From positions 165,553 to 229,552 of the forward strand of contig JAENYV010000001.1 in NCBI GenBank assembly GCA_016841605.1: 64,000 nt of DNA, given 5' to 3'. Positions 28,501-60,700 of the stretch are shown piece by piece. Position 1 is the first letter of the stretch. Each line of letters opens with the position of its first letter. The notes beneath the pieces were generated by a model. It did not search any database. It was not told the origin of the DNA and was given only the letters and a program-made list of their open reading frames with translations. The DNA is from Dethiobacter alkaliphilus. Lineage in GTDB: Bacteria; Bacillota; Dethiobacteria; DTU022; UBA8154. The translations under genes were made by a program, and so were the position numbers.

Positions 28501-28504
28501 AAGG

Positions 28505-34253: not shown

Positions 34254-34277
34254 TCGGATAAAATCGGAGGGAAGGTC

Positions 34278-39452: not shown

Positions 39453-39545
39453 AGTAGCACATATAAACGGGTTTCATAAATAGGACGCTCGTACGGCGCT
39501 ATTTTTTGCTTTACTTAAATATTTATATTATTGGGAGGTTTTTTA

Positions 39546-40367: not shown

Positions 40368-40370
40368 TAA

Positions 40371-41180: not shown

Positions 41181-41229
41181 ATTTTAGGCGGTTAAGTAAA
41201 ACAAGCATTTTTGTTGGGGAGGACGGCAA

Positions 41230-43030: not shown

Positions 43031-43034
43031 GAGT

Positions 43035-44251: not shown

Positions 44252-44301
44252 TTGACACCCCTTGTTTATACATATATAATTTTCCTGTAGTGGTAAAAAA
44301 G
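44252..44301 (+). promoter_or_regulatory. Promoter/leader module copy A (TTGACA-N17-TATAAT + TGGTAAAAAAG box)
   Basis: Perfect sigma-70 hexamers at 44252-44257 and 44275-44280. The conserved box is at 44291-44301. Confidence 0.7.
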
Positions 44302-44464: not shown

Positions 44465-47400
44465 ATGCTGATTACTAACAAAAATTGGTGGTACAGGCTC
44501 CTGCCGTCTATTTTGATTGTGCTCCTGCTTCCCTGTTTCTTCGGCCTGCCGGTACCGGCCGCTGTTCATTCCGAAGGGGGCATTGTTACAATAACAGAGC
44601 CCACCGGGAATATCAAGAATACCGTTAGCAAGGAAACAGCAAGCGGACCAGGCGGTTCGGCCGGCAACAATGTCACTTTTAAGGACCAGGTTCCCGTATT
44701 TTTGAACATGAATAATCCTGACGGTGTAACCGGGAAAGAAGTGTATGCAGGGCATACCTTATCCGGAACCGACGGCGCAACCCCCGCGGATACAGACAGC
44801 CGTGGATTTATCGTGGTAATGGATGAAGCCGGAATACCAGCTCCGGCTTTGACTGCCGATACCAGCGATAACCTGCTTGGGAAGTCCATAGATATTACCT
44901 TTACGGATAATGCCTCCTGGCGGGCGGCGATTAGCGGTGTGCTTGTGGACGGGGTAGCGCTGCAGTCCGGCAAATACACGGTAAGCGCCGGCAAAATCAG
45001 CATTTCCGGCAGCGTTTTCCAGGAATCGAAAGAATACGCCATTGTAGTTGCAGCCAATGGTTACACCGATGCAAGTGTGAGCCAGATAATCGGTACATTG
45101 ATAATTACCGGAGACGGGGTGACGGATCCCCAAATTTTTACGCAGCCCCAACTCGAGGCAATGCAGCCCCAGCTCGAGGAAATGGAGCCCCAGCATGTTG
45201 TTTACAGTTGCATTAATACCTGGCCCAGCAAGAAATGGTATGTGGGAAAAGGGGTCAAATTAGAAGACCTGCTCACCCAGGCGGGACTGAAAGAAACCGC
45301 CGAACAGATTAAATTCAGTTCCGTTGATGGCTACTATATGACGCTTACAGTCAAGGAGTTATTAACGGACAAGCGTTATTGTTTTCCCAATTTCAAAACC
45401 GGTGGCGACGGAGACGGGCATATTCCCGGTGACCCGTCGGGTGCATTCGAGGTGGAGACTATTCTAGGCCTGGTCAGCGCCGAGGGCACCGACGAATCTT
45501 CCTCTATGAACGATACAAATGCCCTGTTGCTGATGCTGGGGCAGCGGTCAGTTACCGAGCAAACAGGCCCCATATTTGTTAAATACGTCAATAAAATTGA
45601 AGTATTGACTGCTGCACCGGCTAAATGGGATAATCCGACGGCGAGCCCGGATAGTGGCATAGTATCTGCGGGGACCATGGTGGAACTGCATAGCAAGTAC
45701 AACGATTTGGATAAGGTCCATTATACGACGGACGGCAGTACTCCAACCATAGAAAGTCCCATGTATAACTGGATTGCCAGCCGGTGGTGGTCCTCGCGAC
45801 AGGATGTTAAGGACGAAATAAACCACCCGATTGAAATTACAAAGAACACCGCTATTAAGGCAATAGTAATCGGTCCAGGCAAAGAGGACAGCGATATTGT
45901 CACCTTCGAGTACCAGGTTCCTGTTATTATGAACACAGATAATCTTGCCGATGCAACCGAAAACGAAGCATACGCAGGTCATACCTTCACAGCGACAGGC
46001 GGAGCTGAGCCATACAGTTTTGCAGTAACTGCCGGGACACTGCCGGCAGGCATGGTTTTAAACGGTGCCGTATTGGAAGGAACGCCGACTGAGAGTGGGA
46101 CATTTCTCTTCACTGTAACCTTAACGGACAGTGCAGATCCCGCGGATGCAGACAGCCATGAGTTTACCCTGGCGGTTGATGAGGCTGAAGTAGTCACGCC
46201 GGTCTTGAATGCCGATACGACGGACAATAAAGTTGGACAGCCGATCGAGCTGACCTTTACGGATGATGGGCTCTGGCGTTCGGCGATTAGCGGTGTGTTT
46301 GTGGACGAAGTGGTGCTTCAGCCGGAGGAATACACGGTAAGCGCCGGTAAGATTAACATAGCTGCCGGAGTCTTCACGTCAGCAAAAGATTACAGTATCG
46401 TAGTGGAAGCCGAAGGGTACGAAGATGCGGCCGTGACGCAGATTATCACTACGTCGTCAACGCCGGAGACTAAGGAACCACCGGTTCTGACCGCCGATAG
46501 TAGCGATAACCTGAAGGGACGGCCGATCGAGCTGACTTTTACGGATGATGGGCTCTGGCGTTCGGCGATTAGCGGTGTGCTGGTGGACGAAGTGGTGCTT
46601 CAGCCGGAGGAATACACGGTAAGCGCCGGTAAGATTAACATAGCTGCCGGAGTCTTCACGTCAGCAAAAGATTACAGTATCGTAGTGGAAGCCGAAGGGT
46701 ACGAAGATGCGGCCGTGACACAGATTATCACTACGTCGTCAGCGCCGGAAACTAAGGAACCACCGGTTTTGACCGCCGATAATAGCGATAACCTGCTTGG
46801 GCAGGGTATAGATATTACCTTTACGGATGATGGCTCCTGGCGTTCGGCGATTCAAGAGGTTAGTGTGGACGGCGCGGTGCTTCAGCCGGAGAAATACACG
46901 GTTAGTGCCGGTAAGATTGCCATTGTTTCCGGCGTTTTCAAGGAATCGAAAGAATACGCCATCGTAGTTAAAGCAGGCGGGTACCCCGATGCAAGTGTGA
47001 GCCAAACGATTAATAGATTGGTAATTACAGGAGCCGGGGTGACTGAATCCAAGATGTTTACGCAGTCCCAGCTCGAAGCAATGTCGCAGCGCCAGTATGT
47101 GTACAGTTGCATCAATACCTGGCCCAGCAAAAAGTGGTATGTGGGAAAAGGGGTCAAATTGAGCGATCTGCTCACACAGGCGGGGATGAAGGGAAACGCC
47201 AAGCTCATTAAATTTTCTGCCGGCGATGGTTATGCCATGACACTTACTGTTCAGGAAATATTAACGGACAAGCGTTATCGTTTTCCTAATTTCAAGACCG
47301 GTGGCGATGGAGACGGGCATATTCCCGGCGATCCGTCGGGCAAAGTAGAGGTGGAAACTATTCTTGGGCTGGTCAGCGCCGAGGGCACGGACGACCCCTC

Positions 47401-49567
47401 TTATATGAACGACACAAATTCCCTGCTGCTGATGCTGGGACAGCGCTCAGTCATCGAGCAAACCGGCCCCTTATTTGTTAAAAACGTCAATAGAATTGAG
47501 GTACTTACTACTACTCCCGGCAAATGGGATACTCCAAAGGTGACTCCGAGTGGTGGAGAGGTGCCTGTTGGAACCATGGTGGAGCTGCACAGCCTTTTTG
47601 ACGACATGGATAAGGTTCATTACACGATGGACGGCAGTACTCCAACCATAGAAAGTCCCATGTATAACTGGATTGCCAGCCGATGGTGGTCTTCACGGGG
47701 CGAAGAAAAAGTAGCCGAGATTAATCACCCGCTTGAGCTGACAAAAGATACGGTAATCAAAGCAATCACAATTGGTTCCGGTAAGATGAACAGTGATGTT
47801 GTCACCTTTTCCTACAAGGTCAGAACAAGTGCGGACAGCAAAATTACCTCCGGAGAAGGCGGTACAATCAGCCTTGGAGAAGAAGCCGTTCTTGAAATAC
47901 CGGGAGGAGCGCTGACCGGAAGCGGAGCGAGGGAAGTAAAAATAGAACGTGTGGAAACAACTCTCTCGGCCCCGAAGGGCTTCAAGCTACTGGGTAGTGT
48001 ATATGAGTTCAGCGTGGGAGGCAAAAACAGCTACAATTTTGCCAAGAAAGTAACCATTAAGCTCAGCTTTGATGCCGGGGCTGTAAATGCGGACGAGACA
48101 CCGGCCATCCACTATTATGACGAAGCTGCCGGCGAGTGGATAAACCTGGGCGGGGAAGTAAGCGGGAATATAATTACTGTGCAGGTGGATCACTTTACTA
48201 AGTTTGCTGTTATTGCAGCCCTTCCCAGTACTGTGACTGTCAAAGTTGAGCCCCGCGAAGGGGGTACAGTAAGCCTTGGAGAAGAAGCTGTTCTTGCAAT
48301 ACCGGGAGGAGCGCTGACCGGAAGCGGAGCGAGGGAAGTAAAAATAGAACGTGTGGAAACAACTCTCTCGGCCCCGAAGGGCTTCAAGCTACTGGGTAGT
48401 GTATATGAGTTCAGCGTGGGAGGCAAAAACAGCTACAATTTTGCCAAGAAAGTAACCATTAAGCTCAGCTTTGATGCCGGGGCTGTAAATGCGGACGAGA
48501 CACCGGCCATCCACTATTATGACGAAGCTGCCGGCGAGTGGATAAACCTGGGCGGGGAAGTAAGCGGGAATATAATTACTGTGCAGGTGGATCACTTTAC
48601 TAAGTTTGCTGTTATTGCGGCGCTTCCCAGTACTGTGACTGCCAAAGTTGAGCCCCGCGAAGGGGGCACAGTAAGCCTTGGAGAAGAAGCTGTTCTTGCA
48701 ATACCTGAAGGAGCGCTGACCGGAAGCGAAGCACTGGAGGTAAAAATAGAGCGGGTGGTTGTACCTCCTGCTCCACCAGCGGGCTTCAAGCTGCTGAGCG
48801 ATATGTTTGATTTCAGTGTGGACGGCAAGAAGTGGTATCGCTTTGCCGGGGAAGTTACCATCAAGCTCAGCTTCGCTCCTGAGGTAAGAAAAGCGGAAGA
48901 GATCCCGGTTATTTATTGCTACGACGAATTCTCGCGGCGTTGGATAAACCTGGGCGGGGAGATAAACGGGACCACTGTTACTGTACAGGTGGACCACTTC
49001 ACCAAATTTGCCGTAATGGCAGCAATGGAGCAGGGATTGGCAGATATCGCCGGGCACTGGGCGGAATACAGTATTAAAGAACTGCTTACCCTTGGGGCTA
49101 TTAGCGGTTATCCGGACGGCACCTTTAAGCCCGACAAGATAATAACCAGGGCTGAATTTACCACAGTGCTGGCGAAGTCCTTTCAGCTTGAAAACAGGGG
49201 CGAAAAGACCTTTATCGACACTGAGGCACACTGGGCCAAAAATTACATAGCTGCGGCAGTAGCGGAGGGTATTGTCAATGGCTATGACACCGCGACCTTC
49301 GGACCGGATAATCCGGTCACCCGCGAGCAGATGGCTGTGATGACCGTCAAGGCGGCCAAAGTATCTCCGGAAGCAGGAGAGCCCCTCTTTGACGACAGCG
49401 GCAGTATCTCCGCGTGGGCCGGGGAAGCCCTGGTCACAGCGATGGAGAACGGGCTCATAGAGGAATATGCCGATAACACCGTCCGGCCTCAGAACAGTGC
49501 CACCAGGGCCGAAGCTGTTACAGTTATTGTGAATGCGTTGCATAAGGCGGGAGAGAGGAAAATATAA
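44465..49567 (+). CDS. Large S-layer-homology (SLH) cell-surface protein with two divergent sulfite-oxidase-fold domains, two CHB_HEX_C domains, an Ig-like domain, 4x approximately 91-aa 'ADTSDN...ITFTDD' repeats, 3x 134-aa repeats and 3 C-terminal SLH domains
   Basis: 1700 aa with a Sec signal peptide. The SO-like domains lie at about 45110-45620 and 47030-47520 (YSCINTWPSKKWYVGKGVKL...LLLMLGQR...FVKYVNKIEV). The CHB_HEX_C-like domains are recognised by HYTTDGSTPTIESPMYNWIA. The SLH region is at about 49020-49560 (AGHWAEYSIKELLTLGAISGYPDGTFKPD). Confidence 0.85.
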   Translation: MLITNKNWWYRLLPSILIVLLLPCFFGLPVPAAVHSEGGIVTITEPTGNIKNTVSKETASGPGGSAGNNVTFKDQVPVFLNMNNPDGVTGKEVYAGHTLSGTDGATPADTDSRGFIVVMDEAGIPAPALTADTSDNLLGKSIDITFTDNASWRAAISGVLVDGVALQSGKYTVSAGKISISGSVFQESKEYAIVVAANGYTDASVSQIIGTLIITGDGVTDPQIFTQPQLEAMQPQLEEMEPQHVVYSCINTWPSKKWYVGKGVKLEDLLTQAGLKETAEQIKFSSVDGYYMTLTVKELLTDKRYCFPNFKTGGDGDGHIPGDPSGAFEVETILGLVSAEGTDESSSMNDTNALLLMLGQRSVTEQTGPIFVKYVNKIEVLTAAPAKWDNPTASPDSGIVSAGTMVELHSKYNDLDKVHYTTDGSTPTIESPMYNWIASRWWSSRQDVKDEINHPIEITKNTAIKAIVIGPGKEDSDIVTFEYQVPVIMNTDNLADATENEAYAGHTFTATGGAEPYSFAVTAGTLPAGMVLNGAVLEGTPTESGTFLFTVTLTDSADPADADSHEFTLAVDEAEVVTPVLNADTTDNKVGQPIELTFTDDGLWRSAISGVFVDEVVLQPEEYTVSAGKINIAAGVFTSAKDYSIVVEAEGYEDAAVTQIITTSSTPETKEPPVLTADSSDNLKGRPIELTFTDDGLWRSAISGVLVDEVVLQPEEYTVSAGKINIAAGVFTSAKDYSIVVEAEGYEDAAVTQIITTSSAPETKEPPVLTADNSDNLLGQGIDITFTDDGSWRSAIQEVSVDGAVLQPEKYTVSAGKIAIVSGVFKESKEYAIVVKAGGYPDASVSQTINRLVITGAGVTESKMFTQSQLEAMSQRQYVYSCINTWPSKKWYVGKGVKLSDLLTQAGMKGNAKLIKFSAGDGYAMTLTVQEILTDKRYRFPNFKTGGDGDGHIPGDPSGKVEVETILGLVSAEGTDDPSYMNDTNSLLLMLGQRSVIEQTGPLFVKNVNRIEVLTTTPGKWDTPKVTPSGGEVPVGTMVELHSLFDDMDKVHYTMDGSTPTIESPMYNWIASRWWSSRGEEKVAEINHPLELTKDTVIKAITIGSGKMNSDVVTFSYKVRTSADSKITSGEGGTISLGEEAVLEIPGGALTGSGAREVKIERVETTLSAPKGFKLLGSVYEFSVGGKNSYNFAKKVTIKLSFDAGAVNADETPAIHYYDEAAGEWINLGGEVSGNIITVQVDHFTKFAVIAALPSTVTVKVEPREGGTVSLGEEAVLAIPGGALTGSGAREVKIERVETTLSAPKGFKLLGSVYEFSVGGKNSYNFAKKVTIKLSFDAGAVNADETPAIHYYDEAAGEWINLGGEVSGNIITVQVDHFTKFAVIAALPSTVTAKVEPREGGTVSLGEEAVLAIPEGALTGSEALEVKIERVVVPPAPPAGFKLLSDMFDFSVDGKKWYRFAGEVTIKLSFAPEVRKAEEIPVIYCYDEFSRRWINLGGEINGTTVTVQVDHFTKFAVMAAMEQGLADIAGHWAEYSIKELLTLGAISGYPDGTFKPDKIITRAEFTTVLAKSFQLENRGEKTFIDTEAHWAKNYIAAAVAEGIVNGYDTATFGPDNPVTREQMAVMTVKAAKVSPEAGEPLFDDSGSISAWAGEALVTAMENGLIEEYADNTVRPQNSATRAEAVTVIVNALHKAGERKI
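46241..46786 (+). repeat. Two near-identical tandem copies of a roughly 273-bp coding repeat
   Basis: 46241-46513 and 46514-46786 are nearly identical at the nucleotide level (ccgatcgagctgac...gaaccaccggtt). They encode the ADTSDN/ITFTDD-type domain. Confidence 0.85.
47850..49015 (+). repeat. Three tandem copies of a roughly 400-bp coding repeat (copies 1 and 2 identical over more than 330 bp; copy 3 diverged)
   Basis: ccgggaggagcgctgaccggaagcggagcgagggaagtaaaaatagaacgtgtggaaac recurs at 47900 and 48302. The units encode the approximately 134-aa VKIERVETTLSAPKGFKLLGSVYEFSVGG...VDHFTKFAV domain. Confidence 0.85.
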
Positions 49568-49620
49568 CGGCACAACCTGTTGAGAAACCAAGATTTTCCG
49601 AAACGGAGTGAAAGTGAAAA

Positions 49621-50205
49621 TTGAGTAAAATGTACCGGAAAAGAATTTCCTTTATAACAACTATAACAACGCTATCGTTATTGTTTTTTCTTCTAATGCT
49701 TTACCTTACGTTTTTGGCCGGATGTCAGGGTGGTCAGCCGACTTCAGCCGGAGAAGGTATTCTAGTAATACGGGGGGATGCTGTGGAAGGTGAAGTTTGC
49801 CTTACCCTGGATGAATTAAAGTCCATGGAGGACGGCCTGATTGAAGACGATTATTTTTCCGTTAATTCATACGGGACAAAGGAGTATTTTCATTTCAAGG
49901 GCATCTGGATCTGGCATGTTTTACAAGAAAAAACGGACTTAAAGGATAATGCCTCCAAGGTGACTTTCATTGCAGAGGACGGTTACACAGTGGAATACAC
50001 GCTGGAAGAGGTCAAGAGGGAAGATTATATTGACGAGCAAAATCCTGCGACAAAGTACAAGATGATCCTGGCCTGGGAAGAAAATGGAAAAGAGTATGAT
50101 CCGGATGAAGGCAATCCCTTTCAACTGGTCGTCGGTCAAAAGGAGCCGGGTGATGAAAACAAACCATACTGGGTGCGCAATGTAAAGACCATCCGCATTG
50201 ATTGA
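49621..50205 (+). CDS. Lipoprotein consisting of a single divergent sulfite-oxidase/YedY-fold (Oxidored_molyb-like) domain lacking the Mo-ligand Cys
   Basis: Lipobox LAGC. ILAWEENGKEYDPDEGNPFQLVVGQKEPGDENKPYWVRNVKTIRI aligns to the SO-family hallmark LLAYEMNGEPL..GFPLRLVVPG..G..VKWL..IEV. Confidence 0.6.
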   Translation: MSKMYRKRISFITTITTLSLLFFLLMLYLTFLAGCQGGQPTSAGEGILVIRGDAVEGEVCLTLDELKSMEDGLIEDDYFSVNSYGTKEYFHFKGIWIWHVLQEKTDLKDNASKVTFIAEDGYTVEYTLEEVKREDYIDEQNPATKYKMILAWEENGKEYDPDEGNPFQLVVGQKEPGDENKPYWVRNVKTIRID

Positions 50206-50261
50206 AGAAAGCAGGCCGACAACCGGTGAGTGAGAATGGTTCCTAAACTGGAGGTTATAGC

Positions 50262-51344
50262 GTGGAAGAAAAAATGAAAAAACATAAGAACTATTACCTG
50301 AGCAATCGGGATCTGCTTATTGTTGCTGTTTTGAGCGGTATCGGAGGAGTGATGAGTACCTATATCGGCTATCTGGGCAATCTCCTGAACCGTATTTGCG
50401 GTGTTCCTTTCGGTGCGGGACAGTTCGTCTCCGGTTTGCATATTTTCTGGTTTATCCTGGTGGCGGGGCTGATCAGGCGACCGGGAGCTGTTACCGTCGC
50501 GGGTCTGCTCAAAGGAGTAATTGAATTGCTCACCGGCAGTACCCACGGGGTTGTCATTGTCTTGATTTCTCTGATACAGGGTCTTATCGTCGATGTTGTC
50601 CTTCTGATTGCCAGGCGCCGGAATTTGGGAAGCTATATGCTGGCCGGCGGGCTTTCCGCCGCCTCAAATGTTTTTGTCTTTCAGCTCCTCTACTTTTCCG
50701 GTGTCCCTTTCACCTATCTTCTCTTTATAGGACTTTTAGCCTTTGTTTCCGGAGTTCTTCTGGCAGGCAGCTTTGGTCACAGTGTGCTGGATATTGTGTT
50801 GCAGGCCAGGCCTTTTCGTTTGGCCGATGCTTCAAGGGAAGAGACAGCCGCAACAGCCGCGACCCCCGGGAGCAAAAAAAGAGTCCTCCCCCGTTTAAGG
50901 ATTGCTGCAACGGTTCTACTGGTTGTGCTGTTTTTTATTGGTGCGGTTTATTACTTTACCGCTGTCTTTGAACCTCCCTGGGTAGGCCCCAGCTGCCGGG
51001 TAGAAGGAGCGGTAGAAAACCCCCTCTCTTTCCAGCTTTCCCGTTTCGACCGGTATGAAACAACCATAACCGCCGAATTAAAGGGGCAGGTTAGCTACAT
51101 CCCTCCGCAGGAGTATACAGGCATCCCCTTAAGTATAATTCTCCAGGAGGCCTCTCCCCTGGATGAGGCTAAAAAGCTTAAAGTTATGGCAACGGATGGT
51201 TATATGGTGGAATTTGAACTGCAAGAAGTGTTAAATGACGACCTGATGGTACTGATCCGGGAAGAAGATATGCTTCGCCTTATAGCCGGAAATTACGAAG
51301 GAGGATACTGGGTGAAACTGGTAAACAGAATGATAGTGGAATAA
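50262..51344 (+). CDS. Fusion protein: N-terminal polytopic membrane domain (5-6 TM, ECF-transporter S-component-like) + C-terminal sulfite-oxidase-fold domain
   Basis: GTG start. TM region 1-190. The C-terminus (ATDGYMVEFELQEV...LIAGNYEGGYWVKLVNRMIVE) is SO-like. It ends at an in-frame TAA, after which the same frame encodes a CHB_HEX_C domain. Confidence 0.55.
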   Translation: MEEKMKKHKNYYLSNRDLLIVAVLSGIGGVMSTYIGYLGNLLNRICGVPFGAGQFVSGLHIFWFILVAGLIRRPGAVTVAGLLKGVIELLTGSTHGVVIVLISLIQGLIVDVVLLIARRRNLGSYMLAGGLSAASNVFVFQLLYFSGVPFTYLLFIGLLAFVSGVLLAGSFGHSVLDIVLQARPFRLADASREETAATAATPGSKKRVLPRLRIAATVLLVVLFFIGAVYYFTAVFEPPWVGPSCRVEGAVENPLSFQLSRFDRYETTITAELKGQVSYIPPQEYTGIPLSIILQEASPLDEAKKLKVMATDGYMVEFELQEVLNDDLMVLIREEDMLRLIAGNYEGGYWVKLVNRMIVE

Positions 51345-51656
51345 ATAAATCTTATTACTGAGGAAGAGCCGGACCAATGGGATGAGCCGACCTCATCGCA
51401 TGTATCGGGGACGGTAACGGCCGGGACACAGGTAACGCTCAATCATACCGGTATCAACGAGGTGAGAATTTATTATACAACTGACAGCAGCACCCCGGAT
51501 GTGAACAGTACCATGTACAATGTAAGCGCTACCTACTACCAGCCGCAGTTGAACGTACCTATTACGATCAACCAAACTGCTACAATTAAGGCTATCGCCA
51601 TCGGACCGGGTAAAACCGATAGCGATGTAGCTGTTTGGACCTATATGTTGGAATAA
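51345..51656 (+). pseudogene. Orphan CHB_HEX_C domain in frame with, and immediately downstream of, the stop codon of the 50262 gene
   Basis: Translation ...EEEPDQWDEPTSSHVSGTVTAGTQVTLNHTGINEVRIYYTTDSSTPDVNSTMYNV...IKAIAIGPGKTDSDVAVWTYMLE is colinear with the domain that follows the SO-like domain in every paralog. There is no start codon except an internal GTG at 51462. Confidence 0.6.
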
Positions 51657-51697
51657 CTGTTTTGGCTAAAGACAGCTAATGTTGTTGTCTAAAACGG

Positions 51698-52543
51698 TTA
51701 AACGGCTATCATGGTTACACCGATATTTACAGGCCGGCCAAAATACATGGAAGTGGTAACGATGGCATCCACTCCTGTTGCCGCATATTTTTCAACATTA
51801 GTTTCGTTTATTCCCCCGGCGGCAATGGTCAGAATGTGCGGGAAATCTTTTTTTATCTCCCGGACCAGGTCGGCTATTTTTTCGGGAGACAATTTATCAA
51901 ACTGTAACCCGTCAATACCCGCGTTGCATAAATAATCTGCTTCTTCCGGTTGTTCAATTTCTACGATTATCTTTTTTTCACAGGTTTTTGTTTTTAATTC
52001 CTGTATTTTTGCAGCCAGTTTGTCCTCCGATTCCAGGAAAACCCGGTGATGCTTAAAAATAAGTATTGTTTCCGATAAGCCGAGCCGGTGAGGAAAACCT
52101 CCGCCGCTCAAAACAGCCTTAATGGATAATTCTTTTGTTCCCGGGAATACCTTTCTTGTTGATAGTATAGAGACGTTCCGGTTTACTTTCTTCGCTTTTT
52201 CTACCAGCTTGTTGGTGCGAGAAGCCACTGCACTGGCATACTCCAGGATATTCTGGGAAGGTTTCCAGAGCAGGTGCAAAACATCTGCTTTACCGCTAAT
52301 TTTCATAAAGATCTGTCCGGGAAGGACTTTCGAACCTGAAGGGGTATATTCGAGCACCCGGCCTCCCTTTAGCTCACACAAACGTGCAATTTCCTCCGTG
52401 CCGCAAAGAACGGCTTCATCCCTGCTGAGGAAGTGCATTTCTCCGTCCCGGCTACCGATATTCAACATAAAGGTAGTGAGATCCATGTAAGGAGTATCTT
52501 CTTTAAGCCATTTTTCTAAAGTATCATTGGTGATATTAACCAT
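51698..52543 (-). CDS. modD: ModD/NadC-family quinolinate-phosphoribosyltransferase-like protein (probable molybdenum utilisation protein ModD)
   Basis: 281-aa type II PRTase fold (NadC-like). Assigned to ModD rather than NadC because of the Mo/W transporter context and because no nadA/nadB are nearby. Confidence 0.65.
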   Translation of the reverse strand: MVNITNDTLEKWLKEDTPYMDLTTFMLNIGSRDGEMHFLSRDEAVLCGTEEIARLCELKGGRVLEYTPSGSKVLPGQIFMKISGKADVLHLLWKPSQNILEYASAVASRTNKLVEKAKKVNRNVSILSTRKVFPGTKELSIKAVLSGGGFPHRLGLSETILIFKHHRVFLESEDKLAAKIQELKTKTCEKKIIVEIEQPEEADYLCNAGIDGLQFDKLSPEKIADLVREIKKDFPHILTIAAGGINETNVEKYAATGVDAIVTTSMYFGRPVNIGVTMIAV

Positions 52544-52731
52544 GTTAAATCCTCCTGTATAGAATTAAGAGACCATCAAGCATTTAACAGACCGGACATT
52601 ACACGAAAGGACTGTTGATTTAGGGGAAGTATACCAAATTTCCTCCTTTATGTAAAGATATGCATATCCATGTGTCTCAATATGATTATATTAAGGGGCA
52701 AAATAAGCTGCAAATCAAAGTAGTTTTTCTG

Positions 52732-52781
52732 TTGACCCTCTTATTTTTATCATATATAATTTTCATGTATTGGTAAAAAAG
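52732..52781 (+). promoter_or_regulatory. Promoter/leader module copy B (TTGACC-N17-TATAAT + TGGTAAAAAAG box)
   Basis: Hexamers at 52732-52737 and 52755-52760. Box at 52771-52781. Confidence 0.7.
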
Positions 52782-52906
52782 ACTAACTTTTGTGGTTACC
52801 AGCAATATGCATGCCGAAACATATCGCGCCTCAAGAGAGCGCTACCAGGTCCGGGACTGTTAATTATTTTTAATATACTGAATAAGACGGGAGAGAGGAG
52901 AGTATA

Positions 52907-54655
52907 ATGGCGCAGGGAAATAATCTTCAATTAAAAAAATGGTTGTATAAGCAATTAATAACCATTCCAGCTCTGTTATTACTTACTGCTTCGTTTTATC
53001 TGACGGCGCCTGCGGTTGCTTTGGCCATACAGTCGGACTCGCTGGAAATTATCGGGGACGGGGTGACGACTCCTGTGACGTTCACCTTGGCCGAGCTTGA
53101 GGCGATGAAGCAATACGAGCAAGTCTACAGTACGATCAACACTTATCCGACCAAGAGATGGTACACGGCAAGAGGGGTTAAATTGAGGAACCTGCTTGCT
53201 TTGGCAGGAATGACAGAAGAAGCCGAAATGATTAAGTTTATATCCAATGATGGCTACGATGTGACCCTTACGGTTAAAGAACTGCTGGAAGACAAACGGT
53301 ATTATTTTCCGGGTTTAAAGGAGAATCATCCCAGTGATGGAAGCATTCCAGGTTCTCCGGAGGGGGCGCAGGAGGTTGAGCCTATCCTTGCCCTTATCAG
53401 TGCCGAGGGCAGTGACAATCCGGCTAATATGAACGACAGGGATTTCTTGCTGCTGATGCTGGGGCAGCGGGCCGTAACCGAGCAGACGAATAATTTGTTT
53501 TTAAAATATACAAGTAGAATCGAGGTGCTTACCACTGCTCCGGAAAAATGGGATAGTCCGAAGACGAGTATTCCGGACGGCACCGTGCTGCCTCCGGGGA
53601 TCATGCTGGAATTGAGCAATAAGGGCAATGACGATGATAAAATTTATTATACCCTGGACGGCAGCACTCCCACGGTGAACAGCCCTATGTTTAACTGGAG
53701 CGCCAGTCGCTGGTGGCCTTTACGAGCGAATGACCTGGAGAGTGTCAACAGGCCGATCGAGCTTACGGAGGACACCGTCCTCAAGGCCATCACCATCGGT
53801 CCCGGCAGGGAGGATAGCGATGTGGTCACGTTTACCTTCACTACTGATCCCACGGCTGTGGACCCGACGAAGATCCCCGGCGGACCGCCGACCGGCGTGA
53901 CCCTCGACCGCAATGCAATTGACCTCAAAGTCGGCGCCACTTTTCAGCTGCAGGCGACGATAGCTCCGTACAATGCCACGGACCGGAGCGTAACCTGGAG
54001 TTCCAGTGATACCAGGACGGCCACGGTGGATAACAATGGCCTGGTAACCGTTGTCGGCCCGGGCTCGGCTACCATCACCGTAAAAACTTTAGTCGGCAAA
54101 TATATATCCTCCTGCATCGTGAACGGTCCTGAACAGGATGATGATGAAGGGGGCGCTATAATTGCCGGTCCCGTTTCTCCGGAAAATGAAGCCCAGGAGG
54201 ATCCTTTGGAGCCGTCGGCGGAAGAACCATTGGTGGAAGAGATTCAAGAAGAGGAGCTTTCAGTAGAGGAGCCGCCGCCATTACCGGAAGATGATCAGCA
54301 GTTCGTGGAAGATAAGGTTACGGCTGATCCCGCGACAGCACCTTCAAAAACCCCTGATAAAGCACCGGACTCTTCCGATGAACCACCAGTGGATGAGTTG
54401 CCTGTACCGGATGTCAAAGGGCAGTATTTGGCGGAAAAGGATGCAGTAGCACTCGCTTCACCCGCTGGCGATGTTTCCTCAGAACAGCCGGGTAGCCTTA
54501 CCCGGCAGATATTCGAAATGTCGCTTGATGTTACTGTACCATTGCCATTACAGGAGGTGCAAAACGAACTGAATATTTATACTGCTGCTATTTTCCTGTT
54601 TCTTTTTCTTTCCGGTATAAGCAAAAAAATCGTAGAATATGCAAAGGAGCTTTGA
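52907..54655 (+). CDS. Secreted/membrane-anchored protein: sulfite-oxidase-fold domain + CHB_HEX_C + Big_2 Ig-like domain + acidic Pro/Glu-rich linker + C-terminal hydrophobic anchor
   Basis: Signal peptide, and YSTINTYPTKRWYTARGVKL (the Cys position is Thr here). The Big_2 motif is VTLDRNAIDLKVGATFQLQATIAPYNATDRSVTWSSSD. C-terminal TM segment is IYTAAIFLFLFLSGI. Confidence 0.75.
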   Translation: MAQGNNLQLKKWLYKQLITIPALLLLTASFYLTAPAVALAIQSDSLEIIGDGVTTPVTFTLAELEAMKQYEQVYSTINTYPTKRWYTARGVKLRNLLALAGMTEEAEMIKFISNDGYDVTLTVKELLEDKRYYFPGLKENHPSDGSIPGSPEGAQEVEPILALISAEGSDNPANMNDRDFLLLMLGQRAVTEQTNNLFLKYTSRIEVLTTAPEKWDSPKTSIPDGTVLPPGIMLELSNKGNDDDKIYYTLDGSTPTVNSPMFNWSASRWWPLRANDLESVNRPIELTEDTVLKAITIGPGREDSDVVTFTFTTDPTAVDPTKIPGGPPTGVTLDRNAIDLKVGATFQLQATIAPYNATDRSVTWSSSDTRTATVDNNGLVTVVGPGSATITVKTLVGKYISSCIVNGPEQDDDEGGAIIAGPVSPENEAQEDPLEPSAEEPLVEEIQEEELSVEEPPPLPEDDQQFVEDKVTADPATAPSKTPDKAPDSSDEPPVDELPVPDVKGQYLAEKDAVALASPAGDVSSEQPGSLTRQIFEMSLDVTVPLPLQEVQNELNIYTAAIFLFLFLSGISKKIVEYAKEL

Positions 54656-54661
54656 AGCAAG

Positions 54662-55333
54662 GTGACGGAATCTATTTTATTATCCTTAAAAGATACCATG
54701 CATGTCATCTCGTCAAATTTATTGATACCTACTATTATTATCCTGCTCCTACTTTTGGCTTTGACCGTAGTCGAACTCGGCGGTATTCTGGCGGAAACCC
54801 TGACGGAAAGACGCAGGATGAAAGTCGACGTGTCGGAGTTGGTTGACGCTTTTCAAGGGAAGGATGCCGGCAAGATTATGGACAAGATCGAGCATAGCCT
54901 TTTGTTACGGCGTCAGAAGAAGGTTCTCGGCAAGCTAATCAGGCACAGCAATTTGCCGTCTGCCTCGTTGCAGGCACTGGCGCGCCGCTTGCTTGCCGGT
55001 GAGGAACTGCATTATACCAAGATAACAAACAGGACCGATCTGGTGGTGCGTTTGGGTCCCATGTTCGGATTGATGGGCACTCTCATTCCACTAGGGCCGG
55101 GTATGATCGCCCTCGGCCAGGGGGATACCAAGACACTGGCAGATTCTCTGCTCATCGCCTTTGACACAACAATAACCGGCCTGGCAGCCGCGGGTATTGC
55201 TTTTGCCATTTCCCGGTTACGGAAACGGTGGTATGATGATTACTTGAGTAATCTGGAGGCCTTAATGGAGAGCCTATTGGAGGTGTTTGCTCATGAACGG
55301 GGGATTGAGAAGCAGGAGGTACAGGACGCATAG
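54662..55333 (+). CDS. exbB: MotA/TolQ/ExbB-family proton channel protein
   Basis: LGPMFGLMGTLIPLG...LADSLLIAFDTTITGLAAAGIAFAI is the ExbB/TolQ signature. Confidence 0.8.
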   Translation: MTESILLSLKDTMHVISSNLLIPTIIILLLLLALTVVELGGILAETLTERRRMKVDVSELVDAFQGKDAGKIMDKIEHSLLLRRQKKVLGKLIRHSNLPSASLQALARRLLAGEELHYTKITNRTDLVVRLGPMFGLMGTLIPLGPGMIALGQGDTKTLADSLLIAFDTTITGLAAAGIAFAISRLRKRWYDDYLSNLEALMESLLEVFAHERGIEKQEVQDA

Positions 55334-55619
55334 GGAATCAGAAGATATCAATCCTCTGGAGGGCGTTATCAACATTGTAGATGCCATGCTGGTATTTGCC
55401 TGCGGACTTATGCTTGCTTTGGCTGTTTACTGGAACATCGACCTGGGCCCCATAGGAGAACGAATCAATATAAACCGTGGACGGGAGGTGACGGAAGTCC
55501 CGGAGTTACGTGACGACCTGATTGAAACCCAAGACCAGGGAAAGCTTTACGAAAGAATGGGCACCGTCTATAAAGACCCCGCAACCGGGCAGCTTTTTAT
55601 GCTGACCGACGAGGAATAA
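55287..55619 (+). CDS. exbD: ExbD/TolR-family protein
   Basis: INPLEGVINIVDAMLVFACGLM matches the ExbD pattern of a single TM plus a periplasmic domain. It overlaps the exbB 3' end. The exact start is uncertain. Confidence 0.6.
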   Translation: MLMNGGLRSRRYRTHRESEDINPLEGVINIVDAMLVFACGLMLALAVYWNIDLGPIGERININRGREVTEVPELRDDLIETQDQGKLYERMGTVYKDPATGQLFMLTDEE

Positions 55620-55643
55620 TAAAGATAAGGGGGGACTAGATCA

Positions 55644-57122
55644 ATGCAAGCTGATAAAAGGAAAGGGGAGACACCCCCGGCATATCCGCCGGAATCTTCT
55701 CAGTTAAAGAGATGGATTTACAGGTCCATGATGATTGTCCTGGGTATGTTAATGCTGGTAAGTATGTTTTACATGCCGTTGCCCGCGGTTGTCCATGCCG
55801 CGACGGACTCGCTGGAAATTACCGGAGACGGGGTGACGGACCCGCTGACCCTGACCCTGACCCAGTTAGAGGAAATGGAGCAATACCAGTATACATACAG
55901 TTGTATTAACACGTGGCCTACCAAAAAATGGTATGTAGGTAAAGGAGTTAAATTGAGCGATCTGCTCGCCAGGGCGGGGATGACCGATGAGGCCAGGCTG
56001 CTTAAATTTACGGCTGTCGACGGTTACACAGTGACGCTTACGGTCAAGGAACTGTTAAAAGATAAGCGTTATCGTTTTCCCAATTTCAAGAGCGGTGGCG
56101 GCGATGGTGACGGGCATACTCCGGGCGATCCTTCGGGTCAGGTGGAGGTAGTGACGATTATCGGCCTGGTCAGCGTCGAAGGCAGCGATAATCCCCAGTA
56201 TATGAACGATCTGAATACTTTGCTGTTGATGCTGGGGCAGCGTGCTGTAACTGAGCAGACAGGAAACCTTTTCGTTAAATATCTGAACAAGATCGAAGTA
56301 CTTACGGACGAGCCGGAAAAATGGGATGCACCGCAGGCCAATCCGGACAGTAGCACAGTGCCCGCGGGAACCATGGTGACACTGAGCAATCTCCACAATG
56401 ATGACGACAAAATTTATTATACCACGGACGGCAGTGAGCCGACCCGGAACAGCCCCATGTATAACTGGATTGCCAAGCGCTGGTGGTCATCACGGGCGGA
56501 TGTACTGGGAACCATCAATCACCCTATCGGACCCATTGAGAAAGATACAATCATCAAGGCGGTTACCATCGGACCCGGTAAAGCGGACAGCGATGTCGTT
56601 ACCTTCAAATATCAGGTTTCCGGGGCTGAGCCGGACAACGGGACATCAACGTCAACAGTCACACCCGGTCCGGAAGAGTCTGAGACAACAGAAGAACACG
56701 GGACAGATGAAATGAAAGGCGAAGTACCCGGGAAACCGTCGCAAAAAATTATCAAGCTTGCCATTGACCGGATGGAAGCGGATATTGACGGCAATACCTG
56801 CGCTCTGGAGGCAGCACCTTATCTCAACACCGAGGTCGGTCGTGTCCTGGTTCCGGTACGGTTTGTCAGCGAAGCCCTGGGTGCCGGAGTTAATTGGAAC
56901 CCGGAAAAAGGACAGATAACCGTCACCGATGAAGGAAAAGAAATTCTCCTGACCCTCGGTTCCGGCAATGTTCAGATCAACGGTATACCGCAGGCCGTTG
57001 ATTGTGTTCCGGTTACACTCCCGCCCGGCCGTACTTTTATCCCCCTCCGCTTTGTGAGTGAGACCCTTGGAGCGAAGGTGGGCTACAAAGCAGAGACCGG
57101 AGAGATCACCATCACAAGATAG
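55644..57122 (+). CDS. Secreted protein: sulfite-oxidase-fold domain (Cys retained) + CHB_HEX_C + copper-amine-oxidase-N-terminal-like cell-wall domain
   Basis: Signal peptide and YSCINTWPTKKWYVGKGVKLSDLL. The C-terminus (VLVPVRFVSEALGAGVNWNPEKGQITVT...FIPLRFVSETLGAKVGY) matches the Cu_amine_oxidN1 domain used as a wall anchor in Clostridia. Confidence 0.75.
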   Translation: MQADKRKGETPPAYPPESSQLKRWIYRSMMIVLGMLMLVSMFYMPLPAVVHAATDSLEITGDGVTDPLTLTLTQLEEMEQYQYTYSCINTWPTKKWYVGKGVKLSDLLARAGMTDEARLLKFTAVDGYTVTLTVKELLKDKRYRFPNFKSGGGDGDGHTPGDPSGQVEVVTIIGLVSVEGSDNPQYMNDLNTLLLMLGQRAVTEQTGNLFVKYLNKIEVLTDEPEKWDAPQANPDSSTVPAGTMVTLSNLHNDDDKIYYTTDGSEPTRNSPMYNWIAKRWWSSRADVLGTINHPIGPIEKDTIIKAVTIGPGKADSDVVTFKYQVSGAEPDNGTSTSTVTPGPEESETTEEHGTDEMKGEVPGKPSQKIIKLAIDRMEADIDGNTCALEAAPYLNTEVGRVLVPVRFVSEALGAGVNWNPEKGQITVTDEGKEILLTLGSGNVQINGIPQAVDCVPVTLPPGRTFIPLRFVSETLGAKVGYKAETGEITITR

Positions 57123-57241
57123 TTCTTTCTTACAATCAGGCCTTAACACTGCCAGAGCCGTTTGACGTAGTGAATACGGCTCTGGCCTAGAAAACGGCTG
57201 TATTTGGGCAATATCCATGGTGACTGAAACATACGCTTTAT

Positions 57242-57303
57242 GTTGACAACTTTTTGTTGACACCCCTTGTTTTTCCTATATAATTTAGTTGATTGGTAAA
57301 AAA
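57242..57303 (+). promoter_or_regulatory. Promoter/leader module copy C (two TTGACA, TATAAT, TGGTAAAAAAG box)
   Basis: TTGACA at 57242 and 57256. TATAAT at about 57278-57283. Box at 57293-57303. Confidence 0.65.
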
Positions 57304-57420
57304 GCCAACTTTTTGCAGTAATATTAAATACAAACCGGTCAATTGTTATTTTAACAGGCACAATTAAGCATGAAGGGGTTTTTTTACGCACATTATGTCT
57401 GAATTGGCATATTGATGGCA

Positions 57421-57745
57421 CTTAAACGGAAAACATTCGCCTTCGAGGAGAGATGTTCGCAGGGACCATGGTGGAATTGAGTTCTCTTGAGGCCTTGATG
57501 GATAGTCTGTTGAAGGTAGTTTTTCCGTGGACGGGGGATGGGAGCATAAGGCAATGCTTAAAGCTTCTGATGAGGATAATCCTCCGGATAAACTGACGAC
57601 ATCGTGAAAATTATGTCGGTAGTTGTTTGCAGTAGTATTTGCATCGGCTATTTATTGTTAGGAAGATCCCGGCCTGGCAGAGAGCTCAGTAGTTTAAAAT
57701 TATTGGACGGGAGGTGACATAAGTCCCGGAGATACGTATCGTTCA
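57421..57745 (+). pseudogene. Decayed remnants of a second exbB 3' end/exbD copy
   Basis: 57470-57600 shows nucleotide similarity to the 55240-55380 exbB/exbD junction (gagttctcttgaggccttgatggatagtctgttgaaggt vs gagtaatctggaggccttaatggagagcctattggaggt). 57690-57740 shows similarity to the exbD interior (ggacgggaggtgacataagtcccggagatacgt vs ggacgggaggtgacggaagtcccggagttacgt). No intact ORF remains. Confidence 0.5.
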
Positions 57746-57783
57746 AGAAGAAGAAAATCAAGTATTAAAGGAGTGTATGCTCA

Positions 57784-60700
57784 ATGCAAACAGTAAAAAA
57801 AAGATGGTGGTACAGGCTTGTACCATCCATCCTGAGTGTGCTGATGATCGTCTGTTCGTTCGGCATGGCGGCACCTGCGGCTGTTTATGCTGTGGACGAT
57901 ATTGAACCTCCTGCCTGGCCGGCAGAGAGCGAATTAACCGCGGATGTCTGCGGCAGCAGTGTGACCTTGAGCTGGCCTGCGGCAACCGATAACGTAGGGG
58001 TTGTCTGCTACGAGGTTTATAAAAACGACGGTCTCATTGATACGGTGACCGGTGCCACTCAGAGAAGCTGCACTGTCTCCGGACTCGATCCTTCTGTCTA
58101 CACCTTCGGCGTACAGGCTGTGGATGACGCCGGCAATCACAGCGAAGCCTTAACGGCCGACGCCACCGTAGAAGCCGTTGCCCTTACAGTTACCGGAGAC
58201 GGTGTAGAGACTCCCATGACCTTTAGCATGACCGATCTACAGGAAATGGAACAGTACCAGCATTTGTACAGTTCAATTAACACCTGGCCCACCAAAAAAT
58301 GGTATGCCGGAGAGGGCGTCAAGCTGACGGACCTTTTAGCCTCCGCCGGAATTAAGGATGAAGCCACGCTGATTACCGTAAAAGCAACTGATGGTTATAG
58401 AATGACGTTTACCCGTCAAGAACTGGTGGAGGACCCCCGCTATTATTATCCGGGTTTGAGAGAAAATGCGGAATATGACGGATCTATACCGGGCTCTCCG
58501 GAGGGGGCGCAGCAGGTGGAGACCATCATAGCACTGCGCAGCGCACAAAGCAATAGCTTAGCAAATATGAATACATCCGATGCTCTGCATTTGCTGATGG
58601 GGCAGAGGTGGGTTACCGAACAAACCAACAACGCGTTTGTGAAACATACCGGGACAATTGAAGTCTCTACTGAGGCCCCGGAAAAATGGGCAAATCCCAT
58701 CGCAGATCCGCCGTCCGGGATTGTGCCCGCGGGGACCGGGGTAATTTTTGACCCTGTCAATATAAATGACATGGACGGGGCCAATTTCCATTATACCACG
58801 GACGGCAGTGATCCTACTTTTGAGAGTCCCATGTATAACTGGATTAAATACCGGTGGTGGTTTAATCGCCCTGACGACCTGCCGATTATAAACCATCCCA
58901 TTAACGTAGACAAAAGTATGACAATTAAAGCGGTGGCTATCGGTTTTGGCAGGGAGGATAGCGATATCCTTACTTTCAATTACCAGGTTCCTCTGCTCAT
59001 TGACACCGGTAATCCTGCCAATGCAACCGAGAACGAAGCCTATGCGGGTCATACCTTTATAGCGGCAGGCGGAGTAGAACCGTACAGTTTTGCGGTAACT
59101 GAGGGAACACTGCCGGCAGGTATGGAACTGAACGGTGCGATATTGGAAGGAACACCGACGGCAAGCGGGACATCTGTTTTCACTGTAACCGTAACCGACA
59201 GTGCAAATCCTGCGAATACAGGCAGCCATGAGTTTACCATGGTGGTAGACGAAGCGGGCGCAGCACCGCCGGCCTTGACCGCCGATACTAGCGATAACAA
59301 AGTCGGACAGGCCATAGATATCACCTTTACCGACGATGCGGCCTGGCGGGCGGCTGTCGGCGGAATAAAAGTCAATGATACTGATTTAAACGGCGAGCAG
59401 TATACACTTGGCGAAGGTAACATCAATATTATTGCCGACGTATTCACCGCTGCCGGTGATTACGTAATTACGGTCCAGGCAACGGGATATGTCGATGCCG
59501 CAGTAACCCAGACCGTAACAGTTGCATCTTCGGACCCGGACGATTTTTATGTATACCAGGGTATATTGGTAGCATACTACGGTTCCGGTGGTGATGTGAT
59601 CATTCCGGATAATTTAGATATAACCGGCATTGGGGGGAGTGCGTTTAGTAATTTAACCAGCCTGACCTCCATAAGCATCCCCGAAGGAGTCACCAGCATT
59701 GACAATAGTGCCTTTCGTGACTGCAGCAACCTGGTTTCAGCCGTCATTCCCGGCACCATTACCAGCATTGGAAACGGTATTTTTTATGATTGCAGCAGCC
59801 TGACTTCGGTCACTATCTTCGAAGGAGTCACCGGCATTGGAGAGCAAATGTTTCGAAATTGTACCAGTCTGGCCTCGCTAACTATCCCCAATAGCGTTAC
59901 CGGTATTGGAGAAAATGCCTTTCTCGACTGCAGCGGCTTGACCTCGCTAACTATCCCCGGCAGCGTTACCGACATTGGCGAAGGTGCCTTTAGAGGTTGC
60001 AGCGGCCTGACTTCGCTAAGTATCCCCGGCAGCGTTACCAGTATGGGAAGGTATGCCTTTCGCGATTGCACTAGCCTGACCTCAGTTACTATCTCTGAAG
60101 GTGTTACCGACATTGGAGAGGATGCTTTTAACGGTTGTAGCGGTCTGACTTCGATAGCTATCCCCGGCAGTGTTACCGGCATTGGAGAAAGTGCCTTTAG
60201 CGGTTGCAGCGGCCTGACTTCAGTCACTATCTCTGAAGGTGTTATTAGCATTGGAGAAGATGCTTTTAGCGGTTGCAGCGGCCTGACTTCAGTTACTATT
60301 CCCGGTAGTGTCACCAGTATTGGAACTAGTGTCTTTAATGTGTGTACCAGTTTGACAACAATTAATGTAAATCCAAGTAACCTCAATTATACCGGTGATG
60401 GTGGGGTATTGTTCAATAAGCTTTTAACAGTACTTGAATGCTATCCGGCTGGAAAAACAGGGGAATATATTGTGCCTGACGGCGTTGAAGCTATTGGCGA
60501 AAGTGCTTTTTCTTCTTGCATCAACCTGGGCTCGCTAGTTTTTCCCGATAGTGTCACCAGCATTGGAGAGTATGCCTTCCGTAACTGTAGCGGCCTGACT
60601 GCGGTTACTATTCCCGGCAGCGTTACCAGTATGGGAAGATATGCTTTTAGAGGTTGCAGCGGCCTGACTTCACTTACTATCTCCGAAGGAGTCACCAGCA

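Follow-up and report, generated by a model that had tools for sequence, protein, structure and literature searches.

Six genes at the end of a 64,000-nucleotide stretch of Dethiobacter alkaliphilus DNA (contig JAENYV010000001.1, positions 165,553 to 229,552; hereafter the window) encode seven copies of a domain with the sulfite oxidase (SUOX) fold, all of them on the plus strand between 44.4 kb and the window end. The encoded proteins are referred to by the letters A, B, C, D, G, and H (Table 1). Our analysis indicates that the seven domains are most likely not molybdenum enzymes, and the explanation that we favor, with moderate confidence, is that they are cofactor-free binding modules resembling the pterin-binding protein PruR, which form part of a surface system made when the tungsten or molybdenum cofactor is scarce. 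More tentatively, the cluster could represent a hitherto undescribed surface system, which syntrophic Firmicutes (Syntrophomonas, Pelotomaculum, Sporotomaculum, Desulfoscipio, and relatives) would turn on when the tungsten cofactor runs short.

The presence of seven copies, first proposed in a sequence-only reading of this DNA, was borne out by the Pfam profile Oxidored_molyb and by a profile built on the copies themselves, the latter of which was used to set the copy boundaries. The Pfam matches are weak (E 1e-8 to 1e-3); relative to the gathering cutoff of 24 bits, A (29.4), B (29.1), C (24.5), and G (35.1) score above it, and D (21.1) and H (18.7) below it. An exhaustive profile search recovered 1155 representative proteins (E up to 1e-3), many of them with 2-10 copies of the domain. 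A literature search on Oxidored_molyb returned no paper on this architecture, and an exact-sequence look-up of protein G returned no record.

The sequence-only reading had equated one residue of the domain with the Cys that coordinates molybdenum in YedY and sulfite oxidase. This residue lies within the motif Y-[SF]-x-[IV]-N-[TS]-[WY] (also written Y-S-x-I-N-T-W-P), which is present in six of the seven copies and bears out the reported Cys in three copies (A1, A2, and G), Thr in D, and Ser in H. The position had also been described as absent from the proteins encoded at 49621 (B) and 50262 (C); this does not hold for B, where the sequence YFSVNSY aligns without a gap and provides Ser80, and the C copy is indeed degenerate (KGQVSYIPP), with Gln at the position by hidden Markov model (HMM) alignment. 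Across 334 aligned family copies, the residue is most often Thr (76), Ser (62), Ala (47), Val (31), or Leu (31), Cys accounting for 12 (3.6%); Tyr35, Asn39, Gly51, Asp76, Gly147, and Gln148 are nearly fixed across the same copies.

Positional orthologues were taken from 67 related loci of genomes and metagenomes, a G-type gene being the one directly after DUF2149 and a D-type gene the one directly before MotA. The position is occupied by Ala (23), Cys (23), Ser (10), Val (2), or Thr (2) among 62 G-type orthologues and by Thr (40), Val (8), Ala (7), or Gly (1) among 56 D-type orthologues, none of which has Cys. Orthologue pairs that are 80-90% identical have the residue in common in only 55% of cases, nearest-neighbor pairs are unlike at it in 14 of 59, and the flanking motif is invariant while the residue changes. 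Taking into account that the residue flips among close orthologues, the position would require merely a small side chain, and the Cys of three window copies is best read as neutral variation without functional signal, any small residue (Thr, Ser, Ala, Val, Cys) being tolerated. A disulfide role for the Cys was considered and dropped, as the G domain holds a single Cys.

To place the domain among solved structures, we used an AlphaFold2 model of the G domain with a mean predicted local distance difference test (pLDDT) score of 91, in which the Cys is located inside β-strand 29-36, two residues ahead of the tip of a hairpin with the loop N37-T41. In a Foldseek search of the PDB with this model, the significant matches were exclusively SUOX-fold proteins, PruR (7KOM) being the top match (E 3.8e-6; template modeling (TM) score 0.61-0.67, normalized to PruR length), followed by SoxC, SorA, YedY, nitrate reductase, and plant sulfite oxidase (E 5e-6 to 2e-5, TM score about 0.6), all of them, PruR included, at probability 1.0. 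PruR (7kom) also ranked first, with E 0.001, when a 29-sequence family profile was searched against PDB sequences; a profile of the seven copies gave only a marginal SorA match, and a single-sequence PDB search with protein G gave no relevant match.

PruR is a Sec-exported protein without the Cys, and its pterin ligand sits between Tyr104 and Trp160 and is also contacted by Asn102 (PMC11194511); in some groups Asn102 is replaced by Asp (PMC13259868), and according to the PruR authors the Trp of a P-W motif structurally takes the place of the Mo-ligand Cys. In HMMER alignments, the D-G-Y motif of the family falls opposite PruR N-D-Y, G-Q opposite P-Q, and the hairpin Trp opposite a PruR Trp, the P-W Trp being aligned with the Trp of N-T-W-P, four residues beyond the variable position. 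D-G-Y is present in all seven window copies, and family-wide the Asp is found in 320 of 340 copies and Tyr, Phe, or Trp in 287 of 337. A further family aromatic (F132/W25/Y14) aligns with the Trp of SorA Y-W-V-K, and a counterpart of PruR Trp160 could not be assigned in these alignments.

The relation of the variable position to the true molybdenum ligand was assessed by hhalign against a profile of 56 MsrP sequences gathered from 80 metagenome loci. The two profiles align with 83% probability (E 9e-6), the hairpin without a gap, and MsrP Cys146 (mature Cys102) lies opposite the conserved family Asn, two residues past the variable position, which makes the proposed equivalence doubtful and suggests that the Mo-ligand equivalent is probably located within N-T-W rather than at the Cys. 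The alignment spans only MsrP residues 113-259, with no counterpart of residues 45-112 or 260-334. The domain therefore lacks the N-terminal 68 residues of mature MsrP, including the invariant G86-G94 block, which we take from the YedY literature to be a Moco (molybdenum cofactor) contact, and the C-terminal 75. Since the signal peptides of D and G end about 4-6 residues ahead of the first aligned strand, these two proteins have no space for the missing N-terminal segment.

Extracytoplasmic Moco enzymes of the SUOX family carry a twin-arginine translocation (Tat) signal, because the cofactor is inserted in the cytoplasm. In agreement with the earlier observation that the N-termini lack a Tat motif, neither RR nor a relaxed Tat regular expression was found in any of the six window proteins, and the relaxed expression matched 2 of 140 family proteins versus 53 of 56 MsrP controls. 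Without a Tat motif, an exported protein would be unfolded, and the domains are predicted to leave the cytoplasm through Sec or as lipoproteins. On inspection, the N-termini of A, D, G, and H look like cleavable signal peptides, and that of B contains a lipobox (LAGC); the claim that all six carry hydrophobic signal peptides fails for C, which is a polytopic membrane protein.

A scan of related loci (designated L with a number) with Rfam identified Moco-type aptamers (RF01055) upstream of family genes. We built a covariance model from 13 of these RF01055-type aptamers and ran it on 69 related loci, which yielded 67 aptamers in 39 loci, all on the gene strand and often tandem or triple. Of 64 aptamers, 37 have a family open reading frame (ORF) as the first downstream gene, and 57 have one within 9 kb downstream. 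Stem P3 is absent from 12 of the 13 aligned aptamers, which have only 3-5 nt between P2 and P4, and 66 of the 67 hits measure 110-129 nt. In the Rfam alignment, P3 is deleted in the aptamer L003:3608 ahead of an A-type gene and retained in the L140 aptamer ahead of modA. Genes for ApbE, a PF09819 component, a phosphatase, and ModA also follow aptamers in the same neighborhoods.

RNAs that lack P3 have been proposed to sense the tungsten cofactor (Tuco), and at least 15 copies, as well as tandem arrays, were noted in S. wolfei (Regulski et al., 2008; PMC2408646). Two P3-lacking RNAs located before "putative Moco-utilizing sulphite oxidase" genes of S. wolfei were unexplained exceptions in that study (PMC2408646). 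These genes very probably belong to the family described here, and a family locus of S. wolfei subsp. methylbutyratica (L136) also has an aptamer.

A hairpin followed by a U-run was detected after 37 of 59 aptamers, at a median of 22 nt past the aptamer and without overlapping P1. The 5' half of this terminator pairs with the 3' strand of the aptamer at -9.3 kcal/mol, compared with -6.7 kcal/mol for shuffled sequences, and 18 of the 37 beat 90% of their shuffles. The arrangement is consistent with an OFF-switch layout, as seen at the modA-linked aptamer of the same set. With OFF-type platforms ahead of them, the related genes would therefore be expressed when the cofactor is scarce.

Several further elements were observed in these loci. 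ApbE-family (flavin transferase) genes, present in 6 of the 69 loci beside surface-protein clusters, are located behind triple or tandem P3-lacking aptamers (L109 612-1078, L127 836-1130, L120 1970-2259, and L098 18336-18453). In L003, a group II intron with a reverse transcriptase (RF02001, RF01998, RF00029; 1791-3599) lies between the aptamers at 1514-1634 and 3608-3729, upstream of the A-type gene. In the window and 14 scanned loci, Rfam identified neither a cobalamin riboswitch nor, apart from the Moco-type aptamers and one c-di-GMP-I aptamer, any other riboswitch; a c-di-GMP-I-GGC aptamer (75 bits) is located at the edge of L089 (331-410).

The family is hosted by Desulfoscipio, Sporotomaculum syntrophicum, Syntrophomonas wolfei, Pelotomaculum, Syntrophothermus, Thermovorax, Dethiobacteria, and related metagenome-assembled genomes (MAGs), and the best match to the G domain of the window (84%) is found in a Bacillota MAG (L101/L002). 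A gene pair encoding a MotA/TolQ/ExbB-family proton-channel protein and a DUF2149 protein directly precedes the G-type gene in 36 of 39 large related loci and is kept in 58-59 of 67 loci. In all 23 loci examined, the D-type protein, encoded directly ahead of MotA/ExbB, has at its C-terminus a conserved transmembrane helix followed by an SGAGKRYxEYxKE tail, a layout that recalls TonB in reverse orientation. In the window, D, MotA, DUF2149, and G are read as one operon, because the gaps between them are only 7 and 24 nt, and the acidic stalk of D is 39% Pro/Glu/Asp across 155 residues. In PDB searches, neither the MotA-like protein nor the DUF2149 protein had a useful match. The SGAG of the D tail was considered as an ApbE flavinylation site and dropped, as it does not fit the motif and sits at the membrane/cytoplasm boundary.

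The PF09819 domain of C corresponds to the substrate-binding component of energy-coupling factor (ECF) transporters, with the SUOX-fold copy sitting after the last transmembrane helix; a pair of a B-type lipoprotein and this PF09819-fold fusion recurs in about a quarter of the loci, followed by an ATP-binding cassette (ABC) ATPase. The reading frame of C continues beyond its stop codon into an Fn3_assoc-like module, the same as that behind the fold in A, D, G, and H. In L003, the C orthologue terminates at the equivalent position without this EPDQWDEP/Fn3_assoc tail, which may be a remnant, a rearrangement, or part of an interrupted gene. A purple-acid-phosphatase-like gene (Pur_ac_phosph_N and Metallophos domains) is present in 32 of 69 loci (e.g., L002 18173-19486), directly behind an aptamer in L113 (11368-12966); none was detected in the window, whose end falls within H. 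Protein A is an S-layer-anchored surface protein, as indicated by its domain make-up. It contains two recent internal tandem duplications, one at 46235-46918 (282-nt units x2.4, 90% identity), which corresponds to the Shr-like_HID repeats, and one at 47855-48758 (402-nt units x2.2, 96% identity).

No riboswitch was found in the window by Rfam gathering score, by Rfam at E up to 5, or by our covariance model with filters off. Upstream of the cluster, the window encodes a regulator in which a ModE-type helix-turn-helix (HTH) domain is fused to a TupA-like tungstate-binding domain; a regulator of the same type adjoins the A-like gene of L002/L101, and another is encoded in L132. In addition, a promoter and leader element (TTGAC[AC]C[CT]C[CT]T, then TATATAAT, then TGGTAAAAAAG) is present in three near-identical versions, upstream of A, D, and H, and within the window the 11-mer TGGTAAAAAAG is confined to these three places. 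The elements before A and after G are located at operon boundaries where the closest relative has aptamers, and the third lies before D. The TGGTAAAAAAG element may be the operator of the ModE/TupA-type regulator, replacing the riboswitches of the relatives, and the promoter elements together with this regulator suggest a protein-based W/Mo control. Directly upstream of the regulator (25948-31568) lie genes for two histidine kinases of PAS/GAF type and for a response regulator whose output domain is of the HD type (HD_5).

We propose that the modules would leave the cytoplasm unfolded, through Sec or as lipoproteins, and would serve at the cell surface in binding rather than as Mo/W enzymes. 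The cluster would comprise wall-anchored A, G, and H, the C-terminally anchored stalk protein D, the MotA/ExbB and DUF2149 pair, the lipoprotein B, and the ECF-type fusion C. Operons in relatives would be controlled by the P3-lacking, OFF-like riboswitches that precede them, for which the ModE/TupA regulator, the modABC-like genes, and the three promoters would substitute in the window. The system would be made at W/Mo cofactor scarcity, capture tungstate, molybdate, or a pterin-type precursor, and hand it over to membrane transporters. Energy could be provided by coupling of D to the MotA/ExbB and DUF2149 proton channel, in the manner of a reversed TonB, and the ECF-type transporter carrying the same fold and the purple-acid-phosphatase-like enzyme could complete uptake. 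As to the ligand, the fold, the phosphatase, and the ECF-type component speak in favor of a pterin-type precursor, and the tungstate-type regulator and the neighboring transporters in favor of tungstate or molybdate.

It should be noted that a number of observations weigh against this proposal. No terminator was detected for 22 of the 59 aptamers, exact complementarity between aptamer and terminator is barely above that of shuffles, and the OFF assignment is a computational one. The window itself has no aptamer, its W/Mo link being suggested by neighboring genes and by orthology to riboswitch-bearing loci, and mod/tup genes lie within 10 kb in just a few related loci. The placement of the Cys against the Mo ligand is taken from profile alignments, which carry no coordinates, and is doubtful to that extent. 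Since PruR has a truncated hairpin and the present family a full-length one, their pockets may not be alike, and small-molecule binding is a prediction with candidate ligands only. Finally, proteins with up to 10 tandem copies and with leucine-rich repeat (LRR), Ig, cohesin, and dockerin partners are compatible with adhesins.

This last observation raises the possibility, which we consider unlikely, that the domains bind no small molecule and have a structural or adhesive role in cell-cell or cell-surface contacts, such as those with syntrophic partners. More than one copy is present in 66 of 177 family proteins, and the partner domains (BspA-type LRR, Ig-like, cohesin/dockerin, SLH, and CW_binding_2) are typical of adhesins. 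The best-conserved columns of the family, however, map to elements of the Moco/pterin site (the N-T-W-P hairpin tip, D-G-Y, G-Q, and aromatic-x-Lys), the genes are tightly coupled to the proton-channel pair and to the ECF-type membrane component, and control by a cofactor riboswitch is hard to explain for an adhesin.

A second alternative, which seems to us rather improbable, is that the modules are PruR-like sensors of extracellular pterin that signal through a membrane partner and do not deliver a nutrient. PruR, the closest solved relative, acts by ligand-dependent contact with a membrane protein (PMC11194511), and D has a conserved transmembrane helix and cytoplasmic tail. However, neither the window nor the related loci annotated with Pfam yielded a DcpA-type GGDEF/EAL gene, many copies per genome would be unusual for a sensor, and the neighbors are of transport type, including the ECF component with its ABC ATPase and the MotA/ExbB pair, whose only studied context is hmu haem uptake.

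The sub-functionalisation proposed in the sequence-only reading, in which the Cys-bearing copies (A1, A2, and G) would bind Moco or the tungsten cofactor as extracellular oxidoreductases and the Thr/Ser copies would have lost catalysis, appears very unlikely. It is favored by the Oxidored_molyb gathering score passed by A, B, C, and G, by the resemblance of C-I-N-T-W to MsrP C-V-E-A-W, by the inclusion of some Moco enzymes in the cofactor-riboswitch regulon (PMC2408646), and by the label of putative sulfite oxidases that Regulski et al. gave to such S. wolfei genes. Against it stand the exchange of Cys with Ala and Ser among orthologues, the two-residue offset of the Cys in the profile alignment, the absence of the N- and C-terminal thirds of MsrP, the lack of a Tat motif, which implies unfolded export, and the OFF-type platforms ahead of related genes, which imply expression at cofactor lack. 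A cofactor enzyme exported unfolded, with no fixed ligand, and made only when its cofactor is lacking is an incoherent alternative. The other option offered in that reading, that no copy binds Moco and the Cys is coincidental, is supported, and the phrase "ligand-binding or structural only" from the same reading comes close to the evidence, but for all seven copies rather than a subset.

Equally little weight is given to capture of a metallo-tetrapyrrole (haem or corrinoid) by analogy with Hmu and Shr, to which HmuU/HmuV of hmuYRSTUV as the counterpart of MotA/ExbB and DUF2149, the Shr-like_HID domains in A and H, and the BtuC/BtuF-like transporter genes would point, and against which stand the Mo/W-cofactor riboswitches, the tungstate-type regulator, the lack of a cobalamin riboswitch in the window and the 14 scanned loci, and the fact that no NEAT, HmuY, or CobN-type gene was seen in the cluster.

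If PruR-like modules of a surface system made under cofactor scarcity are indeed what the family represents, this would explain the "sulphite oxidase" exceptions of Regulski et al. (2008) and provide the first nutrient-acquisition role for the SUOX fold. The routine annotation "molybdopterin-dependent oxidoreductase" is probably wrong for more than 1000 representative family proteins. Syntrophic fatty-acid and propionate oxidizers rely on tungsten and molybdenum enzymes, and a surface system induced by cofactor shortage would bear on the trace-metal limitation of syntrophs and of anaerobic digesters.

Table 1. Features of the window discussed in the text, with positions counted from its first nucleotide.
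Feature	Position	Strand	Description
Regulator	31662..32828	+	ModE-type HTH (TIGR00637, 1.2e-19) fused to TupA-like tungstate-binding domain (NF041772, 6e-45)
BtuF/BtuC/ATPase-type transporter genes	33027-36184		Between the regulator and the ModA/ModB/WtpC-like transporter
ABC transporter like ModA, ModB, WtpC	39531..41958	+	Molybdate or tungstate
Promoter and leader element upstream of A	44252..44301	+	TTGACACCCC, then TATATAAT, then TGGTAAAAAAG
Protein A	44465..49567	+	1700 aa; signal peptide, 4 Shr-like_HID, 2 SUOX-fold, 2 Fn3_assoc/CHB_HEX_C_1, He_PIG, 3 SLH
SUOX-fold copy A1	45086..45610	+	Variable position Cys249, codon 45209-45211
SUOX-fold copy A2	47006..47509	+	Variable position Cys882, codon 47108-47110
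Protein B	49621..50205	+	194-aa lipoprotein, lipobox LAGC; short-form SUOX-fold copy 49750-50202; Ser80, codon 49858-49860
Protein C	50262..51344	+	N-terminal PF09819 (ABC_cobalt) membrane domain; degenerate SUOX-fold copy 50979-51341
Reading-frame extension beyond the TAA stop of C	51345..51656	+	103 codons; EPDQWDEP linker and Fn3_assoc-like module
ModD	51698..52543	-	TIGR01334, E 1.4e-64
Promoter and leader element upstream of D	52732..52781	+	Same element as upstream of A
Protein D	52907..54655	+	582 aa; signal peptide, SUOX-fold 53030-53533 (Thr76, codon 53132-53134), Fn3_assoc, Big_2, acidic Pro/Glu-rich stalk, C-terminal transmembrane anchor (54575-54619), then conserved tail
MotA/TolQ/ExbB-family proton-channel protein	54662..55333	+	Pfam 35.9 bits (cutoff 22.9); start 7 nt past end of D
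DUF2149 protein	55287..55619	+	Pfam 36.9 bits (cutoff 27.1); partner of the MotA/ExbB protein
Protein G	55644..57122	+	492 aa; signal peptide, SUOX-fold 55800-56306 (Cys87, codon 55902-55904), Fn3_assoc, Cu_amine_oxidN1 wall-associated domain
Promoter and leader element upstream of H	57257..57304	+	Same element as upstream of A
Protein H	57784..64000	+	>2072 aa, extends past window end; signal peptide, fn3, SUOX-fold 58171-58671 (Ser164, codon 58273-58275), Fn3_assoc, He_PIG, Shr-like_HID, two BspA-type LRR arrays, NosD/beta-helix

Other features of the window were recorded alongside the cluster. A check of 67 related loci revealed no modD gene. A is preceded by a radical SAM gene (AmmeMemoRadiSam-like, below cutoff) and a gene for a protein of about 390 amino acids (42029-44177); the pair recurs in L004 (3949-7524), beside a MOT1-family molybdate transporter and surface proteins, and the 390-amino-acid protein encoded at 43005 gave no family match. 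The fold region of A, B, D, and G weakly matches the NCBIfam model NF041762, "GEGP motif-containing diheme protein" (E 1e-14 to 3e-5, far below cutoff), and this diheme family may contain a related domain. On the minus strand, a class II lanthipeptide synthetase-like gene (DUF4135 and LANC_like, 1089 aa; 20277-23546) is apparently unrelated to the cluster.

Compared with known systems, the cluster shares with the Bacteroidetes haem-uptake operon hmuYRSTUV an adjacent MotA/TolQ/ExbB-family and DUF2149 pair inside what would be a nutrient-acquisition operon. The pair is annotated there as HmuU/HmuV (PMC11681262, PMC10434189), and hmu is the only studied context of such a pair. In contrast to hmu, no TonB-dependent receptor, HmuY, or CobN-like HmuS was found in the window or in annotated related loci, the regulation is linked to Mo/W rather than iron, and the partner is a protein anchored by its C-terminus (D).

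The single, tandem, and triple P3-lacking aptamers followed by terminators are arranged as described for Syntrophomonas wolfei. The known targets of the RF01055 regulon, however, are transporters, molybdopterin synthesis genes, and cofactor-using enzymes, and no cofactor-free surface family exported by Sec has been described among them; the window differs further in having no riboswitch of its own.

With the PF00174 enzymes YedY/MsrP, SorA, and SoxC, the family has in common the core fold, the weak Pfam matches, and the motifs G-x-x-L-x-x-L-L, D-G-Y, and aromatic-V-K. It differs from them in lacking a conserved Cys, a Tat signal, a dimerisation or haem domain, and the equivalents of MsrP 45-112 and 260-334, and in a regulatory logic that implies expression under cofactor shortage.

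The closest likeness is to PruR (Agrobacterium, Vibrio, Klebsiella; PDB 7KOM, 7KOS/7KOU, 7RKB, 7KP2), a periplasmic pterin-binding protein consisting of a small stand-alone SUOX fold. Sec export and the lack of a conserved Mo-ligand Cys are common to both, the pterin-contacting N-x-Y of PruR aligns with D-G-Y, and, by profile alignment, the Gln (P-Q versus G-Q) and the hairpin-tip Trp are shared. PruR is single-domain, proteobacterial, and paired with a DcpA-type c-di-GMP enzyme, whereas the present family belongs to Bacillota, has up to 10 copies per protein and a full-length hairpin, occurs in fusion with wall anchors or with a membrane component of a transporter, and is linked to MotA/ExbB and DUF2149 and to Mo/W-cofactor control, pterin binding being at most predicted. 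If our proposal holds, the cofactor-free, PruR-type use of the fold would be widened from proteobacterial signaling to the surface proteins of Firmicutes.

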